The notes below the pieces were generated by a model, which saw only the letters and a list, made by a program, of their open reading frames with translations, ran no database searches and was not told the DNA's origin. A stretch of DNA of 32,000 nucleotides from Crocosphaera subtropica ATCC 51142 (GTDB lineage Bacteria > Cyanobacteriota > Cyanobacteriia > Cyanobacteriales > Microcystaceae), in the NCBI RefSeq assembly GCF_000017845.1, contig NC_010546.1, forward strand, positions 4,200,001 to 4,232,000. Direction: 5' to 3'. Made by a program: the position numbers and the translations under genes. Positions 14,336 through 29,272 of the stretch are shown here, one piece after another; the first letter of the stretch is position 1, and every line of letters begins with the position of its first letter.

Positions 14336-15772
14336 ATGAAAAAAACCTTATTTTTAAGTCCTCCGTCCTTTAATGGGTTTGACGGGGCTGCAGGGGCTAG
14401 ATATCAAGCCAAACGAGAAATTACCTCCTTTTGGTATCCCACCTGGTTAGCCCAACCGGCGGCCTTAGTCCCAGGTAGTAAATTAGTGGATGCACCAGCC
14501 CATTATCAAACCGTTGAGGATGTCTTAAAAATTGCGAAAGACTACGAACTGGTGATTATGTACACCAGTACCCCTACCTTACCCAATGATGTTAAATGCG
14601 CTGAGGCCATTAAAGCCCAAAACCCCCACACACAAGTCGGGTTATTAGGGGCCCATGCTGCGGTTTTACCCACCGAAACCTTAGAAGAAAACCCTGTTAT
14701 TGATTTTGTCTGTCGCAACGAATTTGATTACACTTGTAAAGAATTAGCAGAAGGAAAACCCTACGAAGCCATTAAAGGACTCAGTTATCGGGATAAGTTC
14801 GGTAACATTAAGCATACCGAAGAACGGGAATTAATTCACGATTGGGACTCCATGCCCAGTGTTTTTCCCATGTACGAAAAACATCTAAATTTCCGTAATT
14901 ACTTTATTGGTTATTTACTCCATCCCTACGTCTCTTTGTACACAGGAAGAGGCTGTCCTGCTAAATGTACTTTTTGTCTCTGGCCCCAAACCATCGGGGG
15001 TCATCAATACCGTGCCAAAAGTCCCGAAGCAGTGGGTAAAGAGATGGCTTTAGCTAAGTCCATATGGGGTAACTCTGTCCGAGAATATTTCTTTGATGAC
15101 GATACCTTTACCATTGATAAAAAGCGGGTTATTGCCATCAGTGAACATCTCAAAAAGCTTAACTTAACCTGGAGTTGTAACGCCCGTGCTAACCTAGATT
15201 ATGACACCCTAAAAACCTTAAGAGATAATGGCTTACGTCTCTTATTAGTTGGGTTTGAATCGGGAAATCAAGGGGTTTTGGATGGCGTTAAAAAAGGCAT
15301 TAAATTAGAAGTTGCTCGTAAGTTTATGAACAACTGTAATAAACTTGGGATTAAGGTACACGGGGCCTTTATTCTGGGGTTACCTAATGAAAGCAAAGAA
15401 ACCATCGAAGATACCATTCGCTTTGCTTGTGAAGTCAGTCCCCACACCATTCAAGTGTCCATTGCGTCTCCTTATCCTGGCACAGAATTGTACAAACAAG
15501 CGCAAGAAAACGGTTGGTTTACGAACGGAGATTTAGTAGCCAGTTCCGGTATTCAAATGTCTACCTTACAATATCCTAATCTCTCTGCTTCTGAAATTGA
15601 AGATGCCGTTGAACGGATGTATCGTCGCTTCTATTTCCGTCGTCGGACGATCATTCCTATTGTCAAAGAAATGATCGTAGACCCACAAATGTTAGTGCGT
15701 CGTTTACGGGAAGGCCGGGAATTTATGGCCTATTTAAAAGAACGTCATACTCGCAGTTTAGTTAACGCTTAA
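14336..15772 (+). CDS. hpnJ: B12-binding radical SAM enzyme, hopanoid-biosynthesis-associated HpnJ-like
   Basis: The N-terminus MKKTLFLSPPSFNGFDGAAGARYQAKREITSFWYPTWLAQPAALVPGSKL matches my memory of HpnJ (TIGR03471). The radical-SAM cluster motif CPAKCTFC (CxxxCxxC) is at nt 14954-14977. Confidence 0.75.
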   Translation: MKKTLFLSPPSFNGFDGAAGARYQAKREITSFWYPTWLAQPAALVPGSKLVDAPAHYQTVEDVLKIAKDYELVIMYTSTPTLPNDVKCAEAIKAQNPHTQVGLLGAHAAVLPTETLEENPVIDFVCRNEFDYTCKELAEGKPYEAIKGLSYRDKFGNIKHTEERELIHDWDSMPSVFPMYEKHLNFRNYFIGYLLHPYVSLYTGRGCPAKCTFCLWPQTIGGHQYRAKSPEAVGKEMALAKSIWGNSVREYFFDDDTFTIDKKRVIAISEHLKKLNLTWSCNARANLDYDTLKTLRDNGLRLLLVGFESGNQGVLDGVKKGIKLEVARKFMNNCNKLGIKVHGAFILGLPNESKETIEDTIRFACEVSPHTIQVSIASPYPGTELYKQAQENGWFTNGDLVASSGIQMSTLQYPNLSASEIEDAVERMYRRFYFRRRTIIPIVKEMIVDPQMLVRRLREGREFMAYLKERHTRSLVNA

Positions 15773-15832
15773 ACCTATCGTTATCATCAGTCGGTTGGGT
15801 GGAACGAGAGTGAAACCCAACGCGATGAAGTA

Positions 15833-15870
15833 GGGGTTAGGAGTTCGGAGTTCGGAGTTCGGAGTTCGGG
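15833..15870. repeat. Heptanucleotide tandem repeat (GGAGTTC)x4 plus a degenerate flanking copy (STRR-like)
   Basis: Perfect copies at 15840-15846, 15847-15853, 15854-15860 and 15861-15867, preceded by ggggtta. Confidence 0.9.
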
Positions 15871-15924
15871 GATATGAGGTAGGAGGAAAGAGTCAAAACC
15901 AGGGTAGAATCATTTTGTAAGGGT

Positions 15925-16092
15925 GATCAATAATTTAGGACTATTGATCAATAAGTCTGTAATAAGGGTCAATTATTTTTCAACAGCGATCAATAATTGT
16001 GCAATAAGCGTCAGTTATTTTTTAACAGCGATCAATGATTCAGACCGATGGATCAATGATTTTGCAATAGCGATCAATGACCCTACACTATA
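15925..16092. repeat. Eight tandem 21-bp repeats with a conserved GATCAAT(A/G)AT core
   Basis: Core starts fall at 15925, 15946, 15967, 15988, 16009, 16030, 16051 and 16072, so the period is exactly 21 bp. Copies 3 and 5 are degenerate (ggtcaatt, cgtcagtt). Copy 2 forms the 10-bp palindrome ATTGATCAAT. Confidence 0.85.
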
Positions 16093-16116
16093 TTAAAAGG
16101 TGGGCAAAGCCCACCC
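16093..16116 (-). terminator. Rho-independent terminator of the FAD-oxidoreductase gene
   Basis: ggtgggc (16099-16105) pairs with gcccacc (16109-16115) across a 3-nt loop. On the minus strand it is followed by TTTT (complement of 16095-16098). It starts 7 nt past the stop codon. Confidence 0.55.
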
Positions 16117-16122
16117 TACAGT

Positions 16123-18192
16123 TTAACGACGAAGGCTAAACATTATGTCACGGGGAAAAGTAGTAGGATTACCATTACTTTCTAACCGTCGACGTAACTG
16201 TTGTAATTTAGCTTCTTGTTGAGGTAAATTATCCACCAATTGATAGGGTAAAATACTTTGTTCTAGGGAAAAACTAGCTAAGGTTCCGGCTGCAGCACCC
16301 ACGGACCATTCAAACCCATGTACCCGATAAGCAGCCGCCGCAATGTGACTGGTGGCAATACTTTTCCCTGATACGATCAAATTATCCACTTTTTGAGGAA
16401 TTAAAGCCCTTAAAGGTATTTGTGCCGGATGAGCCCCACCGTGAGCAACACGAACCCCTGGACGTTCGCGGTTACCACGCTTTTCTGGGGGAGATAAGGC
16501 CATACAAGGATGAAAATCAATCATATAGTCAGCGACTCCCACCGAGTCAGGATAAACGGTTGCATGGGTGCGTCGGGTGATCATGTACGACGGGCGATCG
16601 TTAGCAGTGACAAATTTGGATTCTAAATCCGCAATAGTTGACCACACCAACTGATACATGGGACGAGGTAAAGAGGTGCGATAAAAATCATGCCAATAAT
16701 CTTTAGTGGAAATATCGATCTCGTTAATCGCAAACCCTTGAGGATGATCGTAAGAGGATCTACCGATAATGCGTCTCCCCTCCCGAATATAAGGGTATTT
16801 GGATAACCCGTGACTGGTTCCCATAGGAGAATCTAACCCTTGCAAGAAGCGATGATTCGGATGAGGCCGTTTAACCCCATAGCCTAAACGAGAATCAGTA
16901 GTACCTGCAACTAACCAATAGTAAAACCCCTGAGAGAGTTCTTCTCCTTTGCGTAAGGCTTCTGTACGGAGTCCCCCTTTCCAACCGTCGGGTTCGAGTT
17001 GTCCCGTTTGTTCGAGTTGTCTACGACTATAAACCAAGTTATCTTGAGCGGTTCCGGGACGGTAATCATTCCCCCATACCCAGTTTTGCATGGAAATATC
17101 GCCGGGGGTGGGTTCATGAACTTTCATCGGCCCCACTCTGACAAATTTGCCTTGTTCGTTACTCCAGATGCGTCGATAGGTAAACACTAAGTCAAAATAG
17201 GCCATTCTGCGATCGCTATCATAACCGTAGTAGGGTTCGTACTGTTCATAAAAGGAGGGTTTCGTCTGGGGTTGGGGGGTGGCGGTTCGTTCCATTGCAA
17301 AGGGGTAGGTAAACCCTTGCACACAGTAGGGATCGCCATTTTCGGTGGGAGAAGAGGGGTTAAGATGACTACGGGGGTCCAGTCCTAAACGGTAGGGAAC
17401 GTCTGCTAAAGCGACGATTTCACCGGTTTCTGTGGCTTCTATGACAAACCAGTCGGTGGGACTTCCTTTTTTAGATTTGGACTCGAAGCGGATAATTTTC
17501 TTGTTAAACCGTTGAGAGTTTTCGTAGCTATAAGCATCTTCAATGGTTTTAGAAAGGGGATCTTTGTTGAGGTGACCGGTTCCAGTTTTCGGGCTATGTT
17601 GAATAGCGATCGCACTTTTGATTAATTTTCCATCTTCACTTAATTCTACGTCTTTAATCACCGTAGAAGGAAACCATTTTAATGTGCCTCTTCCCCATTG
17701 TTGGGCTTCTCTTAATTGCTGATATAATAACTGATGACCATGATAGGGAAGAAAACAACTTTCACTAACCCAACATTCTCCAGGGTTTTGTCGATTGTAG
17801 AGACGGGCAATATTTCTTCTTAACGTATTGTATCCTCTGGGAAAATGTTGTTGCGATCGCTGTCGTTTTCCTTCGTCTAAAGCCGAGGTTCCTTGTGACG
17901 AAATTTGTCCCCCAACCCAATCGGTAATTTCGGTTAAACAAACGGTTTTTCCTGCCAATAAGCCCTCGTAAGCTGCAGCCGAACCTGCTAACCCCGCCCC
18001 AACGATTAATATATCACAATTAACGGTTTCGTGAGGATTACGGGAATTAGCTGACATAGGTAACGTTGTTTCTAAGCTAATTATTCCTAAAAATAAACTT
18101 GTCAAAATTCGTTTTAACGTTTTTTTTTCATGGGTTCTTTTTGGTGACAATAATTTCCCAGATTTTTCCTGATGTTTCCTGAGTCTTCCCAT
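16123..18192 (-). CDS. FAD-dependent oxidoreductase (FAD_oxidored/PF12831-like) with a basic, hydrophobic N-terminal signal-anchor-like extension
   Basis: The dinucleotide-binding motif DILIVGAGLAGSAAAYE is followed by DWVGGQ. The N-terminal 45 aa are Lys/Arg-rich and then hydrophobic (ILTSLFLGIISL). The real start could be an internal Met (MSANS...). Three HIP1 sites lie inside the gene, which suggests native DNA. Confidence 0.8.
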   Translation of the reverse strand: MGRLRKHQEKSGKLLSPKRTHEKKTLKRILTSLFLGIISLETTLPMSANSRNPHETVNCDILIVGAGLAGSAAAYEGLLAGKTVCLTEITDWVGGQISSQGTSALDEGKRQRSQQHFPRGYNTLRRNIARLYNRQNPGECWVSESCFLPYHGHQLLYQQLREAQQWGRGTLKWFPSTVIKDVELSEDGKLIKSAIAIQHSPKTGTGHLNKDPLSKTIEDAYSYENSQRFNKKIIRFESKSKKGSPTDWFVIEATETGEIVALADVPYRLGLDPRSHLNPSSPTENGDPYCVQGFTYPFAMERTATPQPQTKPSFYEQYEPYYGYDSDRRMAYFDLVFTYRRIWSNEQGKFVRVGPMKVHEPTPGDISMQNWVWGNDYRPGTAQDNLVYSRRQLEQTGQLEPDGWKGGLRTEALRKGEELSQGFYYWLVAGTTDSRLGYGVKRPHPNHRFLQGLDSPMGTSHGLSKYPYIREGRRIIGRSSYDHPQGFAINEIDISTKDYWHDFYRTSLPRPMYQLVWSTIADLESKFVTANDRPSYMITRRTHATVYPDSVGVADYMIDFHPCMALSPPEKRGNRERPGVRVAHGGAHPAQIPLRALIPQKVDNLIVSGKSIATSHIAAAAYRVHGFEWSVGAAAGTLASFSLEQSILPYQLVDNLPQQEAKLQQLRRRLESNGNPTTFPRDIMFSLRR

Positions 18193-18701
18193 AATTTTTA
18201 TTGAGTGTGTGAGTATAGCAAGCTAGATGATTAACTATTATGAAGATAGATAGCCAATCATTTATTTTTGTTGTGTTTGGTTCTTTAAGTCTAGGAAAAG
18301 TCTCAGCAAATACTGCAATCTTTTAAGTCTTTTTTCAGATTGTTGAACAATTATTCTGAAAGTTAACAATTATCGTGGCTAAATCAATAGTTTCTATAAA
18401 TTTTTGTTGCTTTTAGCTTTTCTTAATTGATTAATCATCGTTGATTATGTAGGGTTAATTTATCATTCAACCAATTTCCCTTTCTAGTTTGTGACACTAA
18501 GTATTTAATTTAAGAGCCATACTAATATTCGTAAAAGTAAAAACTTTCTTTTTGATAATGCGTTCTCTAAATAATCCTGATAGAAAGGTAGAAAATCCAT
18601 AGAATATGATAAAAATATAAATATATTTGCACAGTTTTCTTATCATTTTTACATGAATTAATTCTGTCCATTTCTAACAATTAACAGTAGCCAATCATCT
18701 T

Positions 18702-18742
18702 GAGAAGGCAGAGAAGGCAGGGGAAGCAGGGGGAGAAAGAAG
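18702..18742. repeat. Purine-rich 9-bp tandem repeat (GAGAAGGCA x2, GGGGAAGCA, GGGGGAGAA...)
   Basis: Copies read directly at 18702-18710, 18711-18719 and 18720-18728, with a tail running to 18742. Confidence 0.7.
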
Positions 18743-18843
18743 ATTACTCTACGATGATAAGCGGATTTGGTATAACAAGAAGTCTCAAACCCTCATTCCC
18801 TCGTTAAAAAAATTCTAACTCCGTTGCGTAGCACGATGTAGTC

Positions 18844-18864
18844 GCACTCCGAACTCCGAACTCA
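18844..18864. repeat. Imperfect (GAACTCC)x3 run, the reverse complement of the 15840-15867 heptamer
   Basis: gcactcc, gaactcc, gaactca at 18844-18864. Confidence 0.6.
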
Positions 18865-18926
18865 CGTTCATTTAAGTCCCAAGCATAATGTGTAGTGCCA
18901 TAGAAATTGTCAAAACTTTTGTTGCA

Positions 18927-21900
18927 CTACCCTTTTGTCACTTCGCCAAGTTGCTGCTTAACCCAGGTTCGGTCAAAGATCCATTGATAAATACGATTAG
19001 TAACCCTGAGAAAACCCTGTTGCTTGATGACTAACCCTGACAACAGTAATTCCTTTTCTTCTGGACTGTTAGTAAGAACAACTGCTTCTTGATCTATCAC
19101 TTGTCGGTAGAGTTCTAACAGTTGAATAGATTGTTGACTGTTGAGGATTCGATCGCGGATCGTTCTCAAATGTTCTGGTTCATCTTGGGATTCCCAATTT
19201 TTGATGATTTGCTGGCGTACCAAATTTTCCACCCACTGCGTTTCATCATGAGTAGGGATGGGAGATGGATAATTACGGATCAACTTACACAGTTTTTGAG
19301 TCAGAAAAGGTTGACCATTGGTCCAAGCTAAAACTTCTTTGAGCAACGTTTGTGGGTTGGTAACTTTTTCTGCCAAACCTTGCAATAAGGGTTGAGCTTC
19401 ATGTTCTTTAAAACCCTCTAGTTGAATAGACTGACCGATGTTAAAGGGGGTGGTTTGAATATTGGTAATTAAATTGGAGGGGGTGGTTACACCAAATAGG
19501 GCAAAGGTTAAACGCTGATAAGCCTGATCAAAGCTGCGCTGGTTATAGCAAGAACGAATCAGAGCAAAAAAGTCATTAACAGGGAAATTTAACTCTAAAA
19601 CGTTATCAATTTCATCGATAAAAATAATTAGTGGTTTTGGAGGAATACCATTTTCGATACCAACTTCAACCAGCAGAATGTCTTCAATAAATTGACTGAA
19701 TCGCTGAACAGGAGAAATATCCTTTCGTTCTTTCCACCAAGCTTTAAGATTGACCTTTTTAAGCAACCCAAACCGTCGCCCTAATTCCACAGCCAAACCC
19801 TTATACCACTGCTCAGGGGTAACGTCTTCACTACCAATACGGGTCATATCAACCACCGCACAGCAACTTCCCTCCTGTTGTAGATAGTGCATCATACGAA
19901 CCATCAAGCTAGATTTACCCATTTGTCGGGGATTGAGAACGTAGCAAAATTCTCCTTGTTTTAGGGCTTTATAGAGATAACGATCCGCCGCACGCACCAC
20001 ATAAGTCGGCGCATCCATGGGTAAACTTCCCCCCACCTGATAGTCAAAAGTGGAAGATTGTTCAGCATTTTTGAGTAACTCATTTTCAAAGATCAGTTCA
20101 GCTTGGGTTGCTTTGAGAATATCTAAAGTGTGTGTGAGTTCTTGTGTTCGTTCTAAGACTTTGAGTTCTAGGTTTTGACTGTACTGAGCTATTTCCTGTT
20201 GAGCTTGTTCTAAGGCGATATTTTTGCGGGTGAGTTCTTGGGTAAATTTTGTTCGCTCTGCTTCTGCTCGTCTGCGATCGCTAATGTCAGTAAAAGCCGT
20301 GATGCCATAGAGAATTTGACCTTTCTCATCAAACACGGGACTAGCGGACACCTCTAAGGGGACAATCTGATCCGTTTTACGAACTTCGATATTATCAACC
20401 CTTACCTTTTCTCCGTTTAAAGCTCGCACAATAGGCTGTTCCTCAGTGGGATATAATTCATCAGTGCCTGTAAGATAAGCTTGATAGGTTTGGGTTAATT
20501 GTTCTGTGGTTGTTTCAGCGATGATTCCCTTTCCTAGTATCTGTTGAGCGGTTTGATTAGCATAGTAGGGGTTGCCTTGAGCATTAATAACAAACACCCC
20601 CACAGGCATTGCTTCTAAAATCTGCGTTAAGGTTTTTTTACTCTCCCGTAATGACTCGTACAGTTGAGCATTTTGCAAAGAAATGGCAGCCTGAGCCGAT
20701 AGAAGATTGAGAACTTCTAGATGACTGGCAGTAAAAGCGTCTGTGGTCAGATTATTTTCTAGATAAAGAAGACCTATCAACTTACCTTGATTGAGTAAAG
20801 GCACGCAAAGAACAGATTTAGCATGAGTCGCAGCAATATAAGGATCTCGCATAAATTGTCCCTCCTTAGCTGCATTGTTTAACACTAAATATTGTTGAGT
20901 TCGCACAACATAGTTAACCACAGCCACTGACAAGAGAGGAATTTGGCTATCCGTTTCCGATTGATCAAACGGAATATGTAATCGATTGATTTGGTCATCA
21001 TTAAGGGTTGCTTGAGCTTCTATGATAAAATTGCTTTGCTTCTCCAGAATTAAAAATCCTTGTTGCGCTCCAGCATTTTCGATGGCAATTTTCAATAATT
21101 TAGCAATCAGAGCATCGAGATCAATTTCTTCTGAGATTGCCTGAGATGCCTTCATAATGCTTGCGAGATCAAGGGTTTCAGGCAAAAGATTGGCAGTGGT
21201 TATGATGGAGAAATTGGTTTTTGATGCTTCGGAGGAAAACCACTGGGGATACGTTTGCTCCAATTGTTCAACTTTTCGCTTGGCTCCCCAAATTTGATAG
21301 GCTTGATGGGCTTTCCTCATGTAAAGTTCAGCAAAGTCTATCTTGCTCCGTTCTATCCAAAATTTAGCAGCCAGTTCATTCGCTAAGGCTTCATTTTGAA
21401 TAAACTCATTTTCTTGGGCAGAGGCGATCGCTTGATCGTACAAATTCATCGCCTGATGCCATTGCCCAGAAAGACGAGACATTTCTGCTGCCACTAATAA
21501 ATATTTATGCAGAAAGTTTTCAGGGCAGTTATCAGCCCAAATTTTCATTTGTTGTTGATTTGATTCGAGTTGCTGCCAATATCTTTGTTGTTCTTCTACA
21601 GAAACTTGAGGATAACAAGCGATTCGAGTGAGGGAATCATAAAAATTGTGTTTTGCAATGGAAATCGTGCCTGGAATATAGTCAAACCATTGTCCAGCTT
21701 GATCTAAAAGGGTTAAGGGGATGGGTTGGTCGTATAAGTAGAGAACTTGGGCTTTAAAGATGTAATATAGGCAAATGGCCGCAGTGGTTTGTTGTTGTTG
21801 GCACGTCTCTAAAAAGGGGATTTCCGCTATTTCTGCTATTTCAAAACAGGCCTCTGTTCCCTGCAAACCCATTAAATTCTCAATCAAAATCTTGGCACTT

Positions 21901-24900
21901 AAAATACAATTAACTGCCCACTGATTTTGACTTTCTTGGGTAAACAACAGACTGCGTTCAACTTCTTTAAGAAGACTCTCTAAGGGTTTCCCTTGATAAA
22001 TAAGATTATATAAATTGTAAGTCAGGCTATAGCCAACTGGTTGTAGATCCCCGATTTTCAAACCGGCTTCAATGCCCTCAATATTAACTCGTTCAGAGAG
22101 TTTAATATGCTTCAACCAGGGCATAATCATACCCGCGTGAAATTGTCGTGTTGCTACCTGAGAAGTCGAATCGTTATATTTATCCGCTAGTTTGACACTT
22201 AACGCCCCATGTTCGTAAGCCAAGGCATAGTTGTGCAACCGATGGGAATTGATGACCCCAAAACAAGAATAACCCACTGGAGATTTGTCCATATGACCAT
22301 ATTTGAGACTCAAATTGGTCATTTTCGTGCCAACAACGTACATCAGGGCTGGATTGAGAATCCAGGCGGCCGGCAGAATACGAATTAAAATTTTATAAGC
22401 AGCCTTTTTCTCTGGAATCACCATTTGATGATGATCATACAATTCACTAACGTTAATGGGTTCGACGGTTTTTTCGTAGTCTGCTAGTTCCGCCGCAAAA
22501 GCTGCTTCTAGGTTTTCTTTGGGGAGATCAATATTCAAGTCTTGTAAAGCTTGGCGACCTAATTCAACGGCCTCGGCTAATTTTCCTAACAGGGTAGATT
22601 GAATAATTTGTAAATAATAAAATTCTGTGCGATCGAGGATGGATTGCGCTTTTGTCAATGCTGTTTCAATTAAATGCTGAGATTCGCTTAAATTACCATT
22701 GAGATATTCCACCTCTGCCAGTTCTTTATAAAGGATTAAAGACATTTCGTACTTTTTTTGCCAAATGTCTCCTGGAAACTCGGTTTTAGCCATCCTTAAA
22801 TAATAGTTGGCCGCAGCGTAGGCGGTAGATTCTTTGGCTTTTTGACCGGCTTGTAAGTTTAATTGGGCTAAGGTAATTTTTTCAGTTTCATCCTCAATCA
22901 ACTCTCGTCCTTGATTGAGATGATCAACAATAGCAAAGAGTTCTTCTGTGTCTTTTTCATTCATGCTATCCCGTAACAGTCTGCCAATGGAGAGATGAAC
23001 GGCTGTTTTTTGCCGATCATCAATGAGAGCATAGGCTGCTTGTTGAACTCGGTCATGAAGAAACTTATAATTTTCAATGAATAAATCAGCCGTAATGGGA
23101 TCGTCTGGGGTGATTTCCAACGCTGATAGGGGTTGAATTAAGCCTAACTGAATGGCTGACAAAAGAGCGTCAAAGGTTTCAGAATGTGATGTTTGGCTGA
23201 TAATTGAGAGGATTGAGATGGTAAAGCGATCGCCAATACAAGCAGCTAAACGTAGGGTTTGCTGTGTTTTCTGGGGCAGTTTACTTAGTCGTGTAATCAT
23301 CAAATCCACCACATTTTTGGTAATCCCCGAATTGGCAATTTGGGTTAGATCCCATTGCCATCGTTGTTTGTGTGGGTCAAAGGTAAGAAAATTTTCTTGG
23401 TGAATGGTTTTGAGAAATTCGTTAATAAAAAAAGGATTCCCTGACGTTTTTTCTAACACTAATGCGGCCAGAGGCGAAACCGTTGAGCGATCGCAATAAA
23501 GACTGTCTGCTAATAACTGCTCAATTTCCTCAAGATTTAAGGGATCTAAAACGATATCGTTGATGATCATCCCTTGTTCGCGCAAACGATTGATCATGAT
23601 CATCGTAGGATGATGAAGACTCACTTCATTGTCACGATAGGCCCCCAACAAAAGCAGATGGTCTAGGTTGCCTTGAGTCATGATAAACTCAATTAAATTC
23701 AAACTAGCAGTATCAGCCCATTGTAGGTCATCGAGAAAAATAACCAGAGGATGGTCTGCTTGGCAAAAAACACCAATAAACCGTTGGAACACTGCTTTAA
23801 AGCGATTTTGTGCTTCTGTTGCCTCTAAGGATGACACCGCAGGTTGAGAACCGATAATTTTACTCAGTTCAGGAATAAAGTCAATCATCACTTGACCATT
23901 ATTTCCCAAAGCTTCTAGCAGCTTGTTACGCCATAGACTGAGGTTTGTCTCACTTTCTGTTAGTAGTTGATTGATCAGGGATTTGAAGGCTGAAATAACA
24001 GCATCATAAGGAATATTGCGTTTAAATTGATCAAATTTTCCAGCAATAAAGTAGCCCCGTTGTTGGGTGATCGGTTTATAAAGCTCTCGAATGAGAACAG
24101 ATTTGCCAATGCCAGAATAACCGCTAACCAGCAACATTTCCACCTGCTGTTGTTGCGTTTCTGATGCCATCACCCGTTGAAAGGTGGAGTATAATGTGGC
24201 TAATTGTTCCTCTCTACCGTAAAGTTTTTGGGAAATTGTTAATTTAGGGAAAACATCGTAACAGATGAGCGGAAATTCTGCAATTTCTCCCGTTTGCTGT
24301 AGTTGAGTTAGACAGTGTTCTAAATCCGCCTTGATTTGCAATGCTTCTTGGTATCGCTCCTCAGCCATTTTTGCCAGCAATTTCATCACAATATTAGATA
24401 CGGCTTTGGGAATGGTTGAATCCACGTCGTGAGGGGGAATGGGGGGTTTAGCCAAGTGAGCATGAACCAATGCTAAAGCATCTTTGGTGTCAAAGGGTAG
24501 CTGATGGGTGAGAAGCTGATAAAAGGTAATACCAAGGGAATAAAAATCAGTGCGATAATCAAGGGCGCGATTCATTCGCCCCGTTTGTTCTGGAGAAATA
24601 TAGGGTAAGGTTCCTTGAATAACTCTGGGATTTTGAAGGGTTGGGGTTTCACGGGTAAATTGGGTTGAGATGCCAAAATCAATAATTTTCAGTTGTTTTG
24701 TATCTGAGTTATAAATAATATTAGAGGGATTAATATCTTTATGAATGACATTGGCTGTGTGGATGTCATGAAGGGTCTGGGAAATCTCAATAGCGATGGC
24801 CAGAAAGTCCGAAAGCTTGAACCTTTGTAAACCCATTAACCGATCTAAGGACTTGCCCCCAAAATCTTCTAAAACAATGGCAAGAGTATTATTATAGGGC

Positions 24901-25118
24901 AATAAATCATAAGCTTTGATCACCCCGTCACTGTTAAAAGAACGGGTAATTTTATACTCTTGTTTATATCGAGTTAACTCTGAAGGGGTGGGATAATCTT
25001 CTCGAAGAACTTTAAGAACAACGGGTTGTTGACTAAGGTGATGAACAGCCCGATAAACCAGTGAATTCTCACTTTCATAAATCGTGGAAATAATTTGATA
25101 GTCGTTAAAAGCGTTCAT
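18927..25118 (-). CDS. 2063-aa multidomain protein: Ser/Thr kinase-like domain, AAA_16-type P-loop NTPase, long helical/TPR-like region, GAF, PAS, coiled coil, then a C-terminal AAA-like (PF14516-type) P-loop module
   Basis: Kinase motifs are [20 protein letters not shown] and YISPEQ (aa 7-265). AAA_16 has Walker A GYSGIGKS (aa 333-340) and Walker [13 protein letters not shown]. The GAF region ends in [22 protein letters not shown] (aa ~1325-1485). The PAS region has [22 protein letters not shown] (aa ~1493-1612), followed by a coiled coil at aa ~1613-1690. The AAA-like module has [17 protein letters not shown]...NPRQMGKSS...LIIFIDEID (aa ~1692-2055). Confidence 0.9.
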
Positions 25119-25172
25119 TTTATAGGATTAATTAATCTGGATAAATTATAAAATTAAATAATAAGATATGGT

Positions 25173-26255
25173 TTATTCCAAACCATAAAAACGAACAGGA
25201 TTATCCCAGAGGATCTTTTGAACAATTTTCTGAGAAAGTTGATCTTCAAGGGCAACCACTTCTGCCATGATTCTTGGTTTATGATCCATATGAGGGTAGT
25301 CAGAACCAAACATTAAATTATCTGAGCCAATATATTCAATTAGTTTAGCGAGATAAGGCTCAGATGGCTCGCAGGCAATAAAACACTGACGACGAAAATA
25401 GTCAGATGGCTTCATTTTTACTGTGTTTGCCACTTCCCATTGCAGATCCTCATACTCACGATCAAGTCGCCATAACCAGTAGGGTAGCCAACCACAACCG
25501 GACTCAAGTAAGCCAATTTTTAAGTTCGGATGCCGTTCTAAAACCCCCCCTTCGATTAACGCCAACAATGCCATCATTTGTTCCATGGGATGAGAACAAG
25601 CGTGGAGAGCAAAGCGCGTGTTAAAGCGATCGCTACCTGTTGTCGGTAAACGAGAATGGGTCCCTTCATGGATACTGACAGCAATGCTTAATTCTTCACA
25701 TTTAGCCCAAAATGGCTCATAGGCAGGGTCACTCAATAATCGACCTTTAACGGGATTGGGACGTAAAAAAACGGCTTTCCAGCCAAAATCAGCAATTCGC
25801 TGCAACTCTATAACCATTTCTTTGGGGTCATGGAGATTCACAACCCCCACCCCTCGAAGGATTTGGGGATTATAGGCACAAAAGTCGTATAACCAAGAAT
25901 TGTAAGCCCGAACAAAAGCACCCACCAGTTGGGGTGACAGGGTGTCCACTGCACTAATCCAGGAGAAGGTCGTAGGATAGAGGAAACAAAGGTCAACCCC
26001 CATCTGCTGCATGGCCCGCACCTGAGACTCGGCATCAAAGTGATTGAGCCAAGATAAGGGATACGCTTGACTGACTTGTTGATGGCCGGTTTCTCGGAGA
26101 CGTTGAGAATATTTGTGTAGGAGGGATTTCCCTTTGATTGTTAGATCGGGTGATGGTGCAAACCCTTTAAATGAGGGTTCGAGATACTTTTCCCACATAT
26201 CAGGGGGTTCGACCACATGGGAATCTGCATCGATAATACGATATTGATCAAGCAT
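25173..26255 (-). CDS. Metal-dependent amidohydrolase-2 family enzyme (ACMSD/LigW-type hydrolase or decarboxylase fold)
   Basis: N-terminal IIDADSHVVEPPDMW (HxH-like metal ligands in the DxH variant typical of PF04909), internal SIHEG and a C-terminal FGSDYPHMDH. Confidence 0.8.
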   Translation of the reverse strand: MLDQYRIIDADSHVVEPPDMWEKYLEPSFKGFAPSPDLTIKGKSLLHKYSQRLRETGHQQVSQAYPLSWLNHFDAESQVRAMQQMGVDLCFLYPTTFSWISAVDTLSPQLVGAFVRAYNSWLYDFCAYNPQILRGVGVVNLHDPKEMVIELQRIADFGWKAVFLRPNPVKGRLLSDPAYEPFWAKCEELSIAVSIHEGTHSRLPTTGSDRFNTRFALHACSHPMEQMMALLALIEGGVLERHPNLKIGLLESGCGWLPYWLWRLDREYEDLQWEVANTVKMKPSDYFRRQCFIACEPSEPYLAKLIEYIGSDNLMFGSDYPHMDHKPRIMAEVVALEDQLSQKIVQKILWDNPVRFYGLE

Positions 26256-26290
26256 AGGTAATCATTTGATGCCAAATGGACAAGATAAAT

Positions 26291-26323
26291 TTTCTCCCTG
26301 CTCCTTTCTCCCTGCTCCCCTGC
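26291..26323. repeat. 14-bp direct repeat TTTCTCCCTGCTCC x2 plus a partial copy, related to the purine-rich repeat at 18702-18742 in inverted orientation
   Basis: Copies at 26291-26304 and 26305-26318, then cctgc. The reverse complement GGGGAGCAGGGAGAAAGGAGCAGGGAGAAA resembles GGGAAGCAGGGGGAGAAAGAAG at 18721-18742. Confidence 0.7.
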
Positions 26324-26355
26324 AATCTTTTGGAGTCAATATAACTAATAAGACT

Positions 26356-28650
26356 TTACATCCACAACGGAAAGGGATTAAGTTCATTTTCTTTAAGAGA
26401 CTTTTCTAACCAGCCTAATTGTACTGGAATTTCATAAAGTCGTCCTGGCCCTAAACGTTTCCAGAAATGACGCAATCCAGGAACAACAACTTTGACGACT
26501 TTCAAACCAATATCAGGACGAGTCTGATCAAGCACTAACAGTTCCATCCCCTTTTGCTCAAGGATTTGCTGACAGGTTGTAATATCTTCGAGTAAATCCT
26601 CCCTTCCCCATGACAAATAATCAGAATAACGTCTTGATGAAACTGTTTCATTGGGTATGAGATAGGACTGATTTTCAAGAGTCGCTGTTTTCCACCACTG
26701 AATGGCTATGTGAGACATGGAAGAAGGATAACGGGTAGTGCCATCAAGATTAGCCGTTAAAACAGCTTGAAGAATTTTATTCATGCCGTTTAAAGCTCGA
26801 TAAATACCTATTTTGGGGTCGAAATGAGTACCAAAGTCAAAAATAATATCCTCTACCTCTCGATCAGTTCTGCGGGAAATCGCAGCAAAGGTGGGAATCT
26901 TCAAATCACTGGTCAGGTCTAAAACCCAGAACTCTCGATGAAGGGTTTTATAGTAATCTTTGAGGGCTTCAAAATAAGGTTCGTTAAAACTATCTAAATC
27001 AACCTTCGGTTTCTTCAGGCGATTGTACCACCACAATGCAGCACCATCTCGCTCGATTAACTCCATCAAACCTTGTAATATAGCTTCTTCAATGGTATTA
27101 CCGGCTGCACAGCCATTGGAATCTGCCCAACAATCGGGTTGAGAGGGAATAGGATAGCCATAATAGCAGTAAGCAGTGGGCAAATACTTAAACGTCTGAC
27201 TGGTTAAAGACCAAAGGGGTGTCCAGTCGATTTCTCTTTCCTCATCAAAAGGTTCAGGAACCCGTTGATACCAATCTAAAGACCGAGAATAGTTAGTATT
27301 CCATTCTTGGCGAGTTTGATATTGAGTTAAGCTAAAGTTCAAACAGGCATTGGGATGAATGGTTGGATGTTCCATTTGCTGATAACGACCTTTTTGCCTG
27401 ATTTCATCCCCTTGAAAGACACCAGAATATCGCTCAATGGCTTCACAAAAACTACTACATTTGGCTTGTTGGTCGGTTCTAGCGGTTCCCCCACTTCTGC
27501 CAATCATGTATTCTCGTAAAGCATAGAGATCATCAAAGATAGTCGCAAAATGATGTTGAGCGACGTAAGTATGAGTTAAACCCGTTGCCTCTTGATGAAT
27601 CTTGGAGAGTTCTCGAACAACCCCCGTGATGGGACTAATATGGTGTTGATACTGCTTCAGGGTTGCTTCTGGGGAAAATATGCGATCGCCTCCATCCCCA
27701 AAAAAGGTTTTTTTGCGGTGTCCTAAAAGAAGGGGTAAGGGCTTACTATTCAATTGTCCTATCAAGTTTTTACCACAGTCAGGACATTGAGGACGCTTAA
27801 CAACCTGATGATTTTTTGTTTCGAGAGAAAGGGTATCATGAGTGACTAAAACCCCCTCTAACCGCTTATTTTCTCCTGTTACAATCCATTTAAACACTTC
27901 TGTAGCTGCCATTCCTAAGGCGGTTTGCACTGTTGCAGTAAGGGAAGCTAGGGGAGGAGTCAGAGGGGTGGCAAGATTCTGTCTTTGTTGAATAAATGCT
28001 TCTACCGGTCTATTTTCTCGTAAACGCTGAGCCAAGCATTGCCAACAAGCTGTTTTGTGGGGTTGGAAGATTGGCCCAATCCAAACTAGGGTTCCGACGG
28101 GTTTGACTAACATCCACGGTTGGGATGACTCAAGGGTTTGTTGATTATAAATATCAAGACCTTTTTCTAAGTAATCATCGCTCAAGACAATTTCAATATC
28201 TCCCTTCTCAGCAATTTGAATATGTAAGGATTCTAGAGCATTTTTGAATTGAGCAATGGGTAAATTAGAAACAAAGGACTTAACTGCTACTGTGGTGGTT
28301 TGTAATCGCTGATAAGCTTCTGTGGAATCAATGTTCAAATGGTCACAAAAAATGGCCAAGTCAGGTGGCAGAATTTCTTCCTCTTTGACAATGTAACCCT
28401 TCTGTTCTAACTGCATTAAAACATAGTGAACTTGAGCCAGCATTAACATTTCTTCTTGCTCAGAGGTTGATTCTGTAAACAAATCAGAGCGAATTTTTTC
28501 GATAATTTCCTCAACCGTATGATGTTCATCCAGTAAAGGGATTAATTGCTGCAATAAAGGGTTACTTACAAAAGAGGAATTTCTTTCTGTTAACAAAAAG
28601 ATGACTTCTGCTGCTACATTTTCAATGCGAAAACAAGCTTTAAATTTCAT
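26356..28650 (-). CDS. Fused E1-like (docking/leader-binding) and YcaO cyclodehydratase, with PatD/TruD-like architecture
   Basis: The N-terminal part has VLSDDYL...QPWMLVKPVG..WIGPIF.P..TACWQCLAQRL plus RPQCPDCG. This gives a four-Cys site: C202/C205 at nt 28036-28047 and C289/C292 at nt 27775-27786. The YcaO part has SFCEAIERYSG and SNGCAAGNTIEEAILQGLMELIERD. The C-terminus has LVLDQTRPDIGLKVVKVVVPGLR and a terminal NPFPLWM proline-containing tail. Confidence 0.9.
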   Translation of the reverse strand: MKFKACFRIENVAAEVIFLLTERNSSFVSNPLLQQLIPLLDEHHTVEEIIEKIRSDLFTESTSEQEEMLMLAQVHYVLMQLEQKGYIVKEEEILPPDLAIFCDHLNIDSTEAYQRLQTTTVAVKSFVSNLPIAQFKNALESLHIQIAEKGDIEIVLSDDYLEKGLDIYNQQTLESSQPWMLVKPVGTLVWIGPIFQPHKTACWQCLAQRLRENRPVEAFIQQRQNLATPLTPPLASLTATVQTALGMAATEVFKWIVTGENKRLEGVLVTHDTLSLETKNHQVVKRPQCPDCGKNLIGQLNSKPLPLLLGHRKKTFFGDGGDRIFSPEATLKQYQHHISPITGVVRELSKIHQEATGLTHTYVAQHHFATIFDDLYALREYMIGRSGGTARTDQQAKCSSFCEAIERYSGVFQGDEIRQKGRYQQMEHPTIHPNACLNFSLTQYQTRQEWNTNYSRSLDWYQRVPEPFDEEREIDWTPLWSLTSQTFKYLPTAYCYYGYPIPSQPDCWADSNGCAAGNTIEEAILQGLMELIERDGAALWWYNRLKKPKVDLDSFNEPYFEALKDYYKTLHREFWVLDLTSDLKIPTFAAISRRTDREVEDIIFDFGTHFDPKIGIYRALNGMNKILQAVLTANLDGTTRYPSSMSHIAIQWWKTATLENQSYLIPNETVSSRRYSDYLSWGREDLLEDITTCQQILEQKGMELLVLDQTRPDIGLKVVKVVVPGLRHFWKRLGPGRLYEIPVQLGWLEKSLKENELNPFPLWM

Positions 28651-28653
28651 TAA

Positions 28654-29247
28654 TTAAGATCCTAACAAGAATATTCCCCCTAAATAAGACATATTATCTC
28701 CATCCCCCAAAAAGCTTCGTAATTCTTCTATCCCTAAATCTTTTAAACCATCTGGGAGATCAGGAATTGGTAATATTCCATATTGGCTTGTTTGTAGTGT
28801 GTCTGTGTGGATAAGGTTATTGAGAGGATGTTGCCGAACTTGTATTAATCTATCGGAATCGTTCCACACAGCAAGTAATTCTTCTGACCACAATTGTGCG
28901 TTTTCATCAAATCTGAGTATCCCTGTTAACCCATTTTGCAACAATTCCTGTAATTTACTTTGTTCTAAATTTTCTAATCCACCTAAAGGGTTAGGAATGG
29001 GTAGATAACCCCGATAGGATTCTCCTGGATCTTGTTCTGTTTGCTCTCGAATTGTTTCGGCAGCATCGGCTGTATCAACATCAACATCAACGTTAGTATA
29101 TTGACTATTTGCTAATCTAATTATTGTCGTTTTTGGATCTTTTCTAAGATCATTTAACACCTGTTCGTTTCCCCAAGCAAAGGCTAAGACCCTGCTCCAA
29201 TTCAATCTTGCATCTGCCAAGATATCTATGCCCGATTGTACCATCAT
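28654..29247 (-). CDS. 197-aa protein made of two tandem NHLP-like (nitrile-hydratase-leader-peptide-like) modules; candidate BMA_0021/0022-type precursor or partner protein
   Basis: An internal duplication is visible by eye. Compare W17-x7-W25...YRGYLPIPNPLGGLENL...LQELLQNG with W120-x7-W128...QYGILPIPDLPDGLKDL...LRSFLGDG. A GGGAGA Shine-Dalgarno sits 5 nt upstream of ATGATG. The stop lies 3 nt before the YcaO start codon. Confidence 0.7.
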   Translation of the reverse strand: MMVQSGIDILADARLNWSRVLAFAWGNEQVLNDLRKDPKTTIIRLANSQYTNVDVDVDTADAAETIREQTEQDPGESYRGYLPIPNPLGGLENLEQSKLQELLQNGLTGILRFDENAQLWSEELLAVWNDSDRLIQVRQHPLNNLIHTDTLQTSQYGILPIPDLPDGLKDLGIEELRSFLGDGDNMSYLGGIFLLGS

Positions 29248-29272
29248 TTATCTCCCAATTTTGTCAACAGGT

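Follow-up and report, generated by a model that had tools for sequence, protein, structure and literature searches.

The present data suggest a model in which a giant cyanobacterial signalling protein and a paralogous NTPase, encoded at opposite ends of a six-gene cluster, would together form a signal-gated NTPase switch that controls the adjacent cluster and acts as a portable, cluster-situated regulatory cassette, a reading to which we give about an even chance. The cluster lies in a 32,000-nucleotide stretch of Crocosphaera subtropica ATCC 51142 (the window; NC_010546.1, positions 4,200,001 to 4,232,000). The giant protein ends in an AAA_35 module (K-type), and the paralogue carries a second AAA_35 module behind a predicted DNA-binding HTH (S-type). 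Several elements are new here: an S-helix with its ERT signature, unfused phosphorelay versions of the pathway, the ORC/STAND-like predicted fold of AAA_35 with its conserved Walker motifs, the HTH on the S-type protein, counts of genomic linkage, variable enzyme cargo and tandem fusions of the two module types.

Results

Architecture of the giant protein

The giant protein is annotated in C. subtropica (P0121) as a "two-component sensor serine/threonine kinase", and Pfam matches place its parts in the order Pkinase, AAA_16, helical region, GAF, PAS, S-helix and AAA_35 (Table 1). The kinase domain contains HKDINPSN and DFG, with IYESxNSxVYRA in place of the Gly-rich loop, and AAA_16 carries Walker A (GYSGIGKS) and Walker B (LVIFLDD) motifs, motif conservation in both domains being seen across 120 orthologues. 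The sole family match in the long helical region was a weak one to TPR_CHK1 (aa 1128-1254, E=0.0021, below cut-off), and the region is homologous en bloc to the corresponding part of dual kinases, as seen by tblastn with aa 1-1300 in 28 paralogous loci (mostly 38-51% identity). The PAS domain is 58-63% identical to that of REC-PAS-AAA_35 response regulators.

Table 1. Features of the cluster and their positions in the window (nt)
Feature	Position	Strand	Basis
S-type AAA_35 gene, cut by window end	30976..>32000	-	Pfam AAA_35 E=1e-145
S-type Walker A, PREMGKTS	31855-31878	-	
S-type Walker B, LVLAIDELS	31582-31608	-	
Dyp-type-peroxidase-like protein, 568 aa	29273..30979	-	TIGR01413 65.3 bits, below cut-off 100.5
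197-aa protein, candidate precursor or substrate	28654..29247	-	two tandem homologous halves
E1-like/leader-peptide-binding + YcaO cyclodehydratase fusion, 764 aa, PatD-like	26356..28650	-	Pfam YcaO E=5.8e-99
Amidohydro_2 family protein, 360 aa	25173..26255	-	Pfam E=2e-38
Giant signalling protein, 2063 aa	18927..25118	-	100% identical to P0121
Ser/Thr kinase domain, aa 15-262	24333..25076	-	Pfam Pkinase E=1.1e-37
AAA_16 STAND-type NTPase domain, aa 298-490	23649..24227	-	Pfam AAA_16 E=1e-45
Long helical region between AAA_16 and GAF, aa ~500-1300	21219..23621	-	tblastn vs paralogous loci
GAF sensor domain, aa 1333-1481	20676..21122	-	Pfam GAF E=1.3e-15
PAS sensor domain, aa 1497-1617	20268..20630	-	Pfam PAS_4 E=8.5e-11
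S-helix linker, aa 1615-1691	20046..20276	-	ERT signature LERTQEL, aa 1655-1661, nt 20136-20156
K-type AAA_35 module, aa 1697-2048	18975..20030	-	Pfam AAA_35 (PF14516) E=5.6e-37
K-type Walker A, NPRQMGKSS, aa 1729-1737	19908-19934	-	
K-type Walker B, LIIFIDEID, aa 1830-1838	19605-19631	-	

The first-pass annotation had proposed that the protein ends in a P-loop module rather than in a degenerate histidine kinase. This is borne out by the AAA_35 match (127.7 bits against a gathering threshold of 27; profile positions 4-329 of 331), by the fold found with Foldseek (below), and by the fact that neither HisKA nor HATPase_c was matched in the giant protein by Pfam (21 families at E<=0.01) or by NCBIfam. 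The module does lie where it had been placed, at nt 18954-20045, with Pfam limits of nt 18975-20030. The succession of PAS and AAA_35 was likewise confirmed, although not as an exception: PF14516 forms the C-terminus in 120/120 of the best full-length homologues (51-71% identity, from many cyanobacterial genera), and the AAA_35-ending architecture is neither rare nor exceptional.

Among the orthologues the K-type Walker A reads NxRQMGKS in 111/120 and Walker B reads [FL][IVLF]DE[IV]D in 120/120; the module is a P-loop AAA+ NTPase and likely active. The AF2 model of the K-type module (pLDDT 78.5, moderate confidence) shows an AAA+ core together with a lid of helices and a winged helix, and Foldseek matched it to ORC2 (1w5t, E=1.9e-7), SSO1545 (2fna), Cdc6, Apaf-1, Roq1 and RPP1. 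The S-type model (pLDDT 78.4, moderate confidence), with a confident five-helix N-terminal domain, was matched to PAB2304 (2qen, E=3.4e-9, TMt 0.64), NRC4, ZAR1 and Avs4. The best PDB matches of both models had a probability of 1.00 and TM values of 0.4-0.64. As modelled, AAA_35 is an ORC/Cdc6/STAND-like AAA+ NTPase with a nucleotide-binding core, lid and winged helix. The K-type module (mean column identity 73%) is 65-76% identical across proteins with REC-PAS, GAF, GAF-PAS, cNMP-binding or DUF3365 N-termini. The AAA_35 family as a whole comprises 9580 representative clusters at E<=0.001; it also occurs N-terminally in WD40-containing STAND proteins and in fusion with TIR/cyclase domains.

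The coiled-coil linker, the sequence of which was earlier quoted from aa 1615 onwards, had been likened to the signalling helix that leads into HisKA, and this comparison holds. S-helices are elements of ~40 residues with a central ERT signature, situated between a sensory and an output domain, and characteristically connect sensors with outputs (PMC1592074). In the giant protein LERTQEL stands between PAS and AAA_35, and the linker aligns with the GAF-to-HisKA linker of the dual kinase of locus L105; the pattern NRTLE.KV.ERT.EL..TL..LKATQA is common to both and to REC-PAS-AAA_35 proteins. Its sequence marks the linker as a true S-helix and as a homologue of the one preceding HisKA in the sister dual kinase.

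The gene cluster and the S-type paralogue

All six genes of the cluster are on the (-) strand with gaps of -4 to 100 bp, and the Dyp-like start and the S-type stop overlap by 4 nt. As the first-pass annotation had it, two AAA_35 modules bracket the YcaO genes, the four genes between them being those for the Dyp-like protein, the 197-aa ORF, the E1-like/YcaO fusion and the Amidohydro_2 protein. The identical six-gene order was found in Nostoc punctiforme NIES-2108 and in L047, and orthologues of the Dyp-like protein occur in L004 and L047. The YcaO fusion scores above the cut-offs of TIGR03604 (251 bits vs 219.25) and TIGR03882 (173.4 bits vs 36.9), and the cluster has in it the combination of YcaO and an E1-like leader-binding domain that belongs to azol(in)e RiPP systems of TOMM/cyanobactin type. 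Amidohydro_2 accompanies YcaO in most related loci. The 197-aa protein has a conserved C-terminus (LGGIFL[IL]GS) and NHLP-like halves; it gave no family match, and no precursor or NHLP model matched it even at E<=1. Neither an FMN dehydrogenase (SagB/ThcOx) nor PatA/PatG proteases were found in the window with Pfam and NCBIfam; elsewhere in the family of loci, ThcOx is encoded in L044 and PatG in L005 and L049. PADLOC-DB 2.0 returned generic kinase-domain matches alone (giant protein aa 3-290) and none for the other five proteins.

The gene at the far end of the cluster indeed belongs to the same family as the C-terminal module of the giant protein: its partial ORF matches AAA_35 with 485.1 bits over profile positions 1-330, is 23% identical to the K-type module across 362 aligned columns (E=1e-21), and contains PREMGKTS and LVLAIDELS as well as the shared N-terminal lead-in. 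The label "stand-alone" that had been attached to it must be dropped, as the ORF is cut by the window end and the full protein (P0241, 449 aa) consists of an N-terminal HTH, a disordered linker and AAA_35. The HTH of P0241 corresponds to PF26355 (precomputed match), and HTH_26 was found in 4/5 S-type orthologues (E 4e-5 to 7e-4). The upstream regions of 36 S-type genes yielded no conserved operator-like motif. The S-type gene is apparently co-transcribed with the enzyme genes, an arrangement that fits non-regulatory roles as well.

Genomic linkage and cargo

Linkage of the kinase family to YcaO loci, fixed beforehand as a test capable of refuting the proposal, was recovered. YcaO or Amidohydro_2 lies near 18/31 non-redundant AAA_35-kinase loci, and YcaO, Amidohydro_2 or HTH-AAA_35 near 26/31, against 0/28 for kinase paralogues lacking AAA_35 (Fisher p=7e-12 for the latter two), these frequencies being rough because the loci were picked by similarity to the query and most metagenome loci show ~5 kb upstream of the kinase. 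At the remaining 5/31 AAA_35-kinase loci (e.g., L036) all three partners were missing from the neighbourhood, and no S-type gene was seen within the sequence in view at several K-type loci (e.g., L046, L048 and L105). From locus to locus the S-type gene and the kinase enclose different enzymes, which may be YcaO/Amidohydro_2, an RPE65-like dioxygenase, an amine oxidase, a radical SAM protein or a methylase. The two module types are fused in tandem in a 749-aa Anabaena protein (L023, Pfam), and the K-type/S-type pairing was also detected by tblastn in L019 and L035.

Unfused versions of the pathway

In 7/59 clusters the parts of the giant protein occur unfused. In L105 and L122, YcaO and Amidohydro_2 are followed by a dual kinase (1823 or 1825 aa) and then by two ORFs, one of 122 aa and one of 734 or 726 aa; in L105 Pfam identified HisKA and HATPase_c in the kinase, REC in the 122-aa protein and REC-PAS-AAA_35 in the 734-aa protein. 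L048 has the same order with its kinase split in two. The unfused version thus runs from a complete STK-GAF-HisKA-HATPase kinase through REC to REC-PAS-S-helix-AAA_35. Since these sister response regulators carry PAS-S-helix-AAA_35 directly after the dual kinase and REC, AAA_35 is the downstream output of the pathway. The earlier view of AAA_35 as a functional stand-in for the histidine kinase is not sustained, as the unfused loci place a complete dual kinase and REC upstream of it. The giant protein is instead a short-circuited fusion that has lost the His-Asp phosphorelay.

Comparison with known systems

The closest relatives are the dual kinases (cbSTKIII; HstK/Alr2258, Pkn40/Pkn41), with which the giant protein shares the Ser/Thr kinase, AAA_16, the helical region, GAF with or without PAS, and the S-helix. 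Over the first ~1500 residues identity is 38-51% for most of the 28 paralogous loci, with a single partial match at 36%, a full dual kinase occupies the corresponding position in the split sister loci, and the Pkinase and GAF domains that characterise the cbSTKIII/HstK family as defined in PMC2176072 are both present (E=1.1e-37 and E=1.3e-15). As had been expected, most relatives without AAA_35 terminate in a histidine kinase, with HisKA/HATPase after GAF in 18/28 loci (PMC2176072). In contrast, the giant protein lacks the defining C-terminal HisKA/HATPase and has AAA_35 after the S-helix, and the AAA_35-ending proteins have a conserved YcaO/Amidohydro_2/HTH-AAA_35 neighbourhood.

The earlier parallel with Burkholderia-type TOMM clusters is sound in that these contain a large Ser/Thr kinase (PMC2887384). 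Members of TIGR03903 (TOMM_kin_cyc) in the NHLP TOMM clusters combine such a kinase with an AAA_16/helical region beside an E1-like/YcaO docking fusion (PMC2887384), the giant protein partially matches the model (positions 482-898, kinase and AAA_16 regions only), and the tandem duplication in the 197-aa protein resembles the NHLP-Burk pairs that are fused in Delftia and Acidovorax (PMC2887384). However, GAF, PAS and AAA_35 are absent from that family, and the 197-aa protein matched no NHLP model at E<=1. Membership in TIGR03903 was rejected, the score being 116 bits against a cut-off of 705.75, with no match to Guanylate_cyc, the cyclase homology domain.

NtrC-like enhancer-binding proteins offer another parallel, in which a sensor or receiver and a signalling helix precede an oligomerising AAA+ domain whose assembly controls transcription; NtrC-like AAA+ domains are listed among S-helix outputs (PMC1592074), and the REC-PAS-S-helix-AAA_35 sister proteins are laid out as response regulators. 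The difference is that the DNA-binding HTH is here predicted on a separate paralogue and not on the same chain. Assignment to the NtrC-like class was discarded, as Sigma54_activat was not among the Pfam matches and the fold search favours the ORC/STAND clade. With STAND proteins, archaeal ATPases and ORC/Cdc6 the module shares a predicted three-part build in which a P-loop core is combined with a helical lid and a winged helix (Foldseek E as low as 3.4e-9, TMt as high as 0.64), although sequence similarity to the solved structures is confined to the P-loop. Proteins that begin with a close AAA_35 relative (55-60% identical) and end in a WD40 propeller show the classical STAND layout, whereas the K-type module is C-terminal, has no repeat sensor of its own and would receive its input through the S-helix from GAF/PAS or a receiver.

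Discussion

Taken as a whole, these observations can be arranged into a pathway in which signals from the kinase, STAND, GAF and PAS domains would pass through the parallel coiled-coil S-helix and toggle the K-type AAA_35 module between nucleotide-dependent states of assembly. The K-type module could then assemble with the S-type HTH-AAA_35 protein encoded at the opposite end of the cluster, whose HTH would bind DNA and turn the six genes (S-type, Dyp-like, 197-aa candidate substrate, E1-YcaO, Amidohydro_2 and kinase) on or off. The K-type/S-type pair would be a portable cassette, bracketing different tailoring enzymes in other genomes. Of the earlier proposal that the module may regulate or scaffold the YcaO machinery, the regulatory half is favoured because the partner is an HTH-AAA_35 protein, whereas the variable enzyme cargo argues against a YcaO-specific scaffold. 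Counting against this model are the lack of an operator-like motif upstream of the S-type genes, the loci in which the S-type gene or all three partners were missing, and the association of AAA_35 with WD40 STAND or TIR/cyclase domains, contexts typical of conflict systems and not of transcriptional control. More tentatively, the K-type and S-type proteins may form a signal-gated STAND/ORC-type hetero-oligomer, a kind of cyanobacterial switch that has so far gone unrecognised. Inputs from a Ser/Thr kinase, from a second STAND NTPase, from GAF/PAS and in some versions from a His-Asp phosphorelay would converge via the S-helix on the assembly of an NTPase-HTH complex, a portable cassette that would time the expression of cryptic RiPP/tailoring clusters; in its radical version the complex would be an NLR-like immune sensor and the YcaO-modified peptide its induced effector. 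We consider this wider proposal possible but doubtful. No literature was found on such an AAA_35 kinase/HTH-AAA_35 switch.

An alternate scenario would make AAA_35 a biosynthetic accessory within the peptide-modifying machinery itself, such as a scaffold or chaperone that uses ATP to present the precursor to E1-like/YcaO, with the sensors gating enzyme activity post-translationally. The K-type module is tied to a PatD-like YcaO and Amidohydro_2 in fused, split and GAF-only architectures, Cyanosarcina keeps only the E1-like/leader-binding half (292 aa) beside the kinase and two S-type genes, and a genuine cyanobactin cluster in L049, with PatG, PatB and PirE-like precursors, has a GAF-AAA_35 gene as its last member. 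However, the AAA_35 pair is also kept where YcaO is missing and the cargo is an RPE65-like dioxygenase (a 17-locus cluster and others), an FAD amine oxidase, or TP_methylase with TPR proteins; the S-type partner bears a predicted DNA-binding HTH; and the K-type module, like a signalling output, is found in fusion with receiver, cNMP-binding, GAF and PAS domains, so that an accessory role appears unlikely. A conflict or defence function is likewise an improbable reading. Here the AAA_35 proteins and AAA_16 would be NLR-like STAND sensors that oligomerise upon invasion or stress and trigger a toxic effector, in the window a YcaO-modified peptide and elsewhere other enzymes. The AAA_35 fold does match plant NLR resistosomes, Apaf-1 and Avs4, and its N-terminal position in WD40 STAND proteins and its occurrence with TIR/cyclase domains point the same way. 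The S-type N-terminal domain matches a Pfam family named for vWA-MoxR-associated proteins, which belong to conflict systems (PMC7159879); systems of this kind typically have a variable "effector" slot flanked by constant components; and some loci are on plasmids or beside transposases. Yet AAA_35 and YcaO are absent from PMC7159879, PADLOC gave only the generic kinase-domain matches and nothing for AAA_35, YcaO, the amidohydrolase or the Dyp-like protein, the cargo consists of tailoring enzymes rather than the nucleases, TIR, caspase-like or pore-forming effectors of known systems, and the S-helix, phosphorelay, GAF and PAS are wired as in signalling by small molecules or redox state.

It is also conceivable, if quite improbable, that the genes are linked without being coupled, sharing a common mobile or recombination-prone island while the kinase acts on unrelated genes elsewhere in the genome. 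Transposases and plasmid locations at some loci, the five loci lacking every one of the three partners, and the housekeeping genes that flank the window cluster are compatible with this. The association is nevertheless kept in distant genera (Crocosphaera, Nostoc, Anabaena, Gloeothece, Prochloron and Calothrix) and across three K-type carrier architectures, with conserved gene order and short or overlapping intergenic gaps, and the 28 paralogous kinases have none of the partners nearby. The linkage counts contradict the view that K-type AAA_35 genes are no closer to YcaO, Amidohydro_2 or S-type genes than gene density would predict.

To our knowledge, cyanobacterial genomes contain many silent RiPP and tailoring-enzyme clusters, and we know of no established triggers for them. 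A literature search found no paper on the function of AAA_35; as the family is also very large, a functional assignment would propagate widely. If the proposed switch is real, a STAND/ORC-like AAA+ domain would join the short list of S-helix-driven outputs. The naturally fused and unfused versions of the pathway provide a rare side-by-side system for the bypass of a His-Asp relay by domain fusion, and the conserved sensor/NTPase/HTH cassette at the cluster ends offers a handle, mutation or over-expression of which could activate silent clusters.

Domain architecture of the giant protein

P0121, the database copy of the giant protein in Crocosphaera subtropica ATCC 51142 (formerly Cyanothece 51142), is annotated as a 'two-component sensor serine/threonine kinase' and is 100% identical to the 2063-aa product, in which Pfam placed the domains tabulated below. 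Neither HisKA nor HATPase_c was matched in the protein by Pfam or NCBIfam, which bears out the first-pass annotation in its claim that an AAA-like module ends the protein and that a histidine kinase is absent; the Walker motifs and coiled-coil sequence that it had read were likewise found in place. A degenerate histidine kinase at the C-terminus was ruled out by the same lack of HisKA/HATPase in both libraries and by the AAA+ fold retrieved with Foldseek. The architecture is no oddity, and PF14516 was C-terminal in 120 of the 120 best full-length homologues (51-71% identity), which form length classes of ~2030-2110 aa with PAS and ~1850-2010 aa without PAS and come from Nostoc, Calothrix, Chamaesiphon, Gloeothece, Prochloron, Myxosarcina, Phormidium, Aerosakkonema, Spirulina and other genera. 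The AAA_35-ended kinase type is widespread but uncharacterised. Across 120 orthologues the kinase HKD and DFG motifs and the Walker A of AAA_16 are kept. The Gly-rich ATP-binding loop of the kinase is replaced by IYESxNSxVYRA, a substitution also kept across the 120, and the Ser/Thr kinase domain may be an atypical kinase or a pseudokinase.

Positions of the genes and domains discussed (nucleotides in the window or in related loci, residues in the giant protein)
Feature	Sequence	Position	Strand	Remark
Giant protein gene	window	18927-25118	-	
Pkinase	giant protein	aa 15-262		Pfam
Substituted Gly-rich loop	window	25041-25091	-	aa 10-26
AAA_16	giant protein	aa 298-490		Pfam
TPR_CHK1	giant protein	aa 1128-1254		Pfam, weak match
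GAF	giant protein	aa 1333-1481		Pfam
PAS	giant protein	aa 1497-1617		Pfam
AAA_35 (PF14516)	giant protein	aa 1697-2048		Pfam, E=5.6e-37
Dyp-peroxidase-like protein, 568 aa	window	between modules		score below family cut-off
197-aa ORF	window	28654-29247	-	no family match
Fused E1-like/YcaO cyclodehydratase, 764 aa	window	between modules		TIGR03604 and TIGR03882 above cut-off
Amidohydro_2 protein, 360 aa	window	between modules		
S-type gene, partial	window	30976->32000	-	
Low-G+C stretch	window	5001-6000		
181-aa ORF	window	5342-5887		
HpnJ-type hopanoid radical SAM gene	window	14336-15772	+	TIGR03471, 791 bits
FAD_oxidored protein, 689 aa	window	16123-18192	-	
749-aa K-type/S-type ORF	L023	22030-24279		Anabaena
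Adjoining K-type and S-type matches	L019	25451-27607		tblastn
Adjoining K-type and S-type matches	L035	21598-23829		tblastn
699-aa AAA_35 protein	L049	11373-13472		
RPE65-family gene	L073	1759-3591		
Triple RPE65 protein, 1396 aa	L008	5799-9989		
292-aa gene	L005	9120-9998		Cyanosarcina radialis

The linker following PAS contains LERTQEL (aa 1655-1661), the defining ERT signature of a signalling helix, or S-helix (PMC1592074). A 27-residue stretch of this linker aligns with the linker of REC-PAS-AAA_35 proteins and with the GAF-to-HisKA H-box linker of the dual kinase at the related locus L105 (YNRTLEQKVSERTEEL...LKKLKATQAQ...AGIAHEIKNP), and in fused proteins without PAS (L047) a homologous helix stands directly after GAF and is followed by AAA_35. 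Given the alignment with the pre-HisKA helix, the earlier impression of a signalling helix holds as far as homology goes. AAA_35 is, as judged from this alignment, attached to the same helix that elsewhere bears HisKA.

In several sister loci these parts occur unfused, in the order YcaO, Amidohydro_2, a complete dual kinase, a 122-aa receiver and a REC-PAS-S-helix-AAA_35 protein, a type that makes up 7 of 59 non-redundant clusters. At L105 the dual kinase comprises 1823 aa (Pkinase, AAA_16, GAF, HisKA, HATPase_c) and the last protein 734 aa; L122 agrees with it in ORF sizes and order, and L048 in order, but with the kinase split in two. The giant protein corresponds to the dual kinase minus HisKA/HATPase plus the response regulator (REC-PAS-S-helix-AAA_35) minus its receiver. 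The unfused loci mark AAA_35 as the predicted pathway output, acting after the histidine kinase in loci that encode one, and as a single fused chain the giant protein would skip the phosphorelay.

The AAA_35 module and its S-type partner

The C-terminal 444 residues of the giant protein retrieved 4474 homologues, the best 120 of which were 65-76% identical and differed in their N-termini, being REC-PAS (~727-735 aa, the commonest), GAF, GAF-PAS, cNMP-binding, DUF3365 or none. The highly conserved clade of this module is termed K-type (mean column identity 73%, alignment A1), and the clade of the partial ORF at the window end S-type. A PDB sequence search with both modules gave only an uninformative P-loop match to RecA. 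AlphaFold2 models of the K-type module (pLDDT 78.5, pTM 0.69) and of the full S-type protein P0241 (pLDDT 78.4) both present an alpha/beta P-loop core, a helical lid and a small C-terminal winged-helix-like domain. Foldseek against the PDB matched the K-type model to archaeal ORC2/ORC1/Cdc6, the archaeal AAA+ ATPase SSO1545, Apaf-1 and plant NLRs (E from 1.9e-7), and the S-type model to PAB2304 (E=3.4e-9, TMt 0.64), SSO1545, the NRC4, ZAR1 and RPP1 resistosomes, ORC/Cdc6 and Avs4. Taken together with Walker motifs that are kept across 120 orthologues of the kinase-linked module, these fold matches indicate that AAA_35 is a STAND/ORC-like NTPase module, probably an active one.

An exhaustive search placed 9580 representative clusters in the AAA_35 family at E<=0.001. 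In many family members, including relatives 55-60% identical to the K-type module, AAA_35 stands in front of C-terminal WD40 propellers, which is the classical STAND layout. Two scanned proteins, P0361 and P0368, carry two or three copies 48% identical to K-type, followed by the membrane-sensor domain CHASE2; tandem copies number 2 to 6 per protein in these and in P0364, P0365 and P0367. Literature searches outside subscription journals found no paper on PF14516, VMAP-M9 or the K-type/S-type cassette, the term 'AAA_35' giving unrelated matches only. Neither AAA_35 nor YcaO is mentioned by Kaur et al. (2020), and these regulators go unmentioned in surveys of cyanobacterial YcaO and TOMM clusters. 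The family is very large and apparently unstudied.

The partial ORF matched AAA_35 at E=1e-145 and aligned with the C-terminal module of the giant protein at 23% identity (E=1e-21), so that the proposed homology of the two modules stands. The description of the second as stand-alone does not, as PF26355 (HTH_VMAP-M9) precedes AAA_35 in the full protein (P0241, 449 aa). HTH_26 (Cro/C1-type) was matched in four of five S-type orthologues (E 4e-5 to 7e-4), JGI labels many members XRE-family regulators, and in the P0241 model residues 1-90 form a confidently predicted N-terminal domain of five helices ahead of a disordered linker. The cluster opens with the S-type gene, upstream of which come a 611-bp intergenic region (L131 2536-3146) and then an NDH-2-like gene. 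TAGCA/TGCTA half-site palindromes, seen at L131 and L004, were dropped as a shared operator, occurring in 2 of 36 S-type upstream regions (background 0.0098 per random window of equal length). At L023 a single ORF consists of a K-type followed by an S-type AAA_35 (two Pfam stretches), and the adjoining matches at L019 and L035 are arranged alike. Such a Rosetta-stone fusion, within a few kb of the kinase locus, is classic evidence for joint action of both types.

Gene clusters and their linkage

Between the two AAA_35 modules of the window lie four genes on one strand, with gaps of -4 to 100 bp, in keeping with the proposal that paralogous modules bracket the YcaO genes. The 197-aa ORF is built from two halves in tandem that are homologous to each other (W..L...W....L...R.DP ... 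G.LPIP...GL..L; BLASTP between halves E=3e-4) and is conserved at full length in Nostoc (L004) and L047, down to its C-terminal LGGIFL[IL]GS. Although reminiscent of the NHLP-Burk precursors that are fused in tandem in Delftia and Acidovorax, it matched no NHLP or precursor model at E<=1; it is a candidate YcaO substrate. Promoter and terminator counts in window 18000-32000 were no higher than in shuffles.

Gene look-ups, a genome scan and a metagenome scan yielded 101 K-type loci, onto which the window proteins were mapped by tblastn; collapsing the loci at 92% K-module identity left 59 clusters, in 31 of which the sequence covers the kinase start plus 3 kb or more of upstream DNA. Among the 31, an S-type gene was present in 18, a YcaO orthologue in 17 and Amidohydro_2 in 16. 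At least one of the three occurred in 26/31 against 0/28 kinase loci without AAA_35 (Fisher p=7e-12), figures that are rough, as in most metagenome loci the visible upstream sequence is only ~5 kb long, gene presence was pooled across each cluster and the loci were sampled by their similarity. The 28 control loci are paralogues from the same scan of genome contigs (few 8-mer patterns, returning mostly paralogues), and 18 have HisKA/HATPase after GAF. The kinase is thus linked to YcaO loci, as had been anticipated, with YcaO absent from all 28 controls.

The six-gene order is identical in Nostoc punctiforme NIES-2108 (L004) and L047. The Gloeothece locus holds two YcaOs, Amidohydro_2 and a ThcOx-type oxidase, and that of Prochloron YcaO and Amidohydro_2. 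Between the S-type gene and the kinase lie an RPE65-like dioxygenase (L073, in a metagenome cluster of 17 loci, L085, L108, L008), an FAD amine oxidase (L043, L101) or a radical SAM/SPASM protein with a methyltransferase (L045). Directly upstream of the kinase, with no S-type gene on that side in the visible sequence, are TP_methylase and TPR proteins (L054, L090) or PhyH with Dyp-like and YcaO proteins (L080); at L055 the dioxygenase is upstream of the kinase and the S-type gene downstream. The upstream RPE65-family (carotenoid-cleavage-dioxygenase-like) proteins of L073 and its relatives, including L055, measure 587-610 aa, and the L008 protein has three RPE65 stretches. At L049 a GAF-AAA_35 gene closes a genuine cyanobactin cluster with PatG, PatB and PirE-like precursors; 2 kb away, a protein combining Guanylate_cyc, TIR and AAA_35 looks in its architecture like a conflict-system protein. 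At L005 the kinase gene is abutted by a gene whose product corresponds to just the leader-binding (E1-like/winged-helix) half of the YcaO fusion (46% identity to its aa 3-277); as read from this alignment, the peptide-binding domain is retained and the YcaO domain lost. Two S-type genes lie next to it, as does a PatG-like protease accompanied by many small ORFs.

Elsewhere in the window, the HpnJ-type gene adjoins the FAD_oxidored gene, which a 734-bp AT-rich spacer separates from the kinase gene, and no evidence of cluster membership was found for either (window 14336-18192). G+C dips to 0.246, against ~0.40 around it, in a stretch whose 181-aa ORF matches the C-terminal part of DUF4238 only, and which may be a remnant of inserted DNA.

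Discussion

The observation made in the first-pass annotation is confirmed, and its interpretation, in which GAF/PAS sensing is coupled to an NTPase output that regulates or scaffolds the YcaO machinery, is supported in part only. Up to the S-helix the giant protein resembles the dual kinases, whose defining C-terminal histidine kinase it lacks (PMC2176072), and it has a parallel in Burkholderia-type TOMM clusters, which likewise encode a large Ser/Thr kinase (PMC2887384). Membership of TIGR03903 (TOMM_kin_cyc, NCBIfam) was rejected on score. The nearest mechanistic analogue would be an S-helix-coupled AAA+ output such as that of NtrC-like activators; AAA_35 differs in lying on the ORC/STAND side of AAA+ and in having the HTH on a separate chain.

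A role of the AAA_35 modules inside the biosynthetic machinery is improbable given the variable cargo of the clusters and the HTH on the S-type partner. The fold of AAA_35 and the contexts of its wider family speak for an NLR-like conflict system in which the enzymes would serve as effectors; however, PADLOC matched nothing beyond the kinase domain, and the kind of enzymes in the cluster and the signalling wiring also argue against such a system, which we consider equally doubtful. Linkage without functional coupling is less probable still, in view of the breadth of the association.

The domain order, S-helix homology, fold class, motif conservation, fused and unfused variants, HTH on the partner, gene neighbourhood and K-S fusion are the parts of a regulatory model that the sequences show, and to the model as a whole we give roughly an even chance. 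This model proposes that signals from the kinase, STAND, GAF and PAS domains would act via an S-helix dimer on the nucleotide-dependent assembly of the K-type AAA_35, which would then associate with the HTH-AAA_35 protein, and that this association may set transcription of the cluster.
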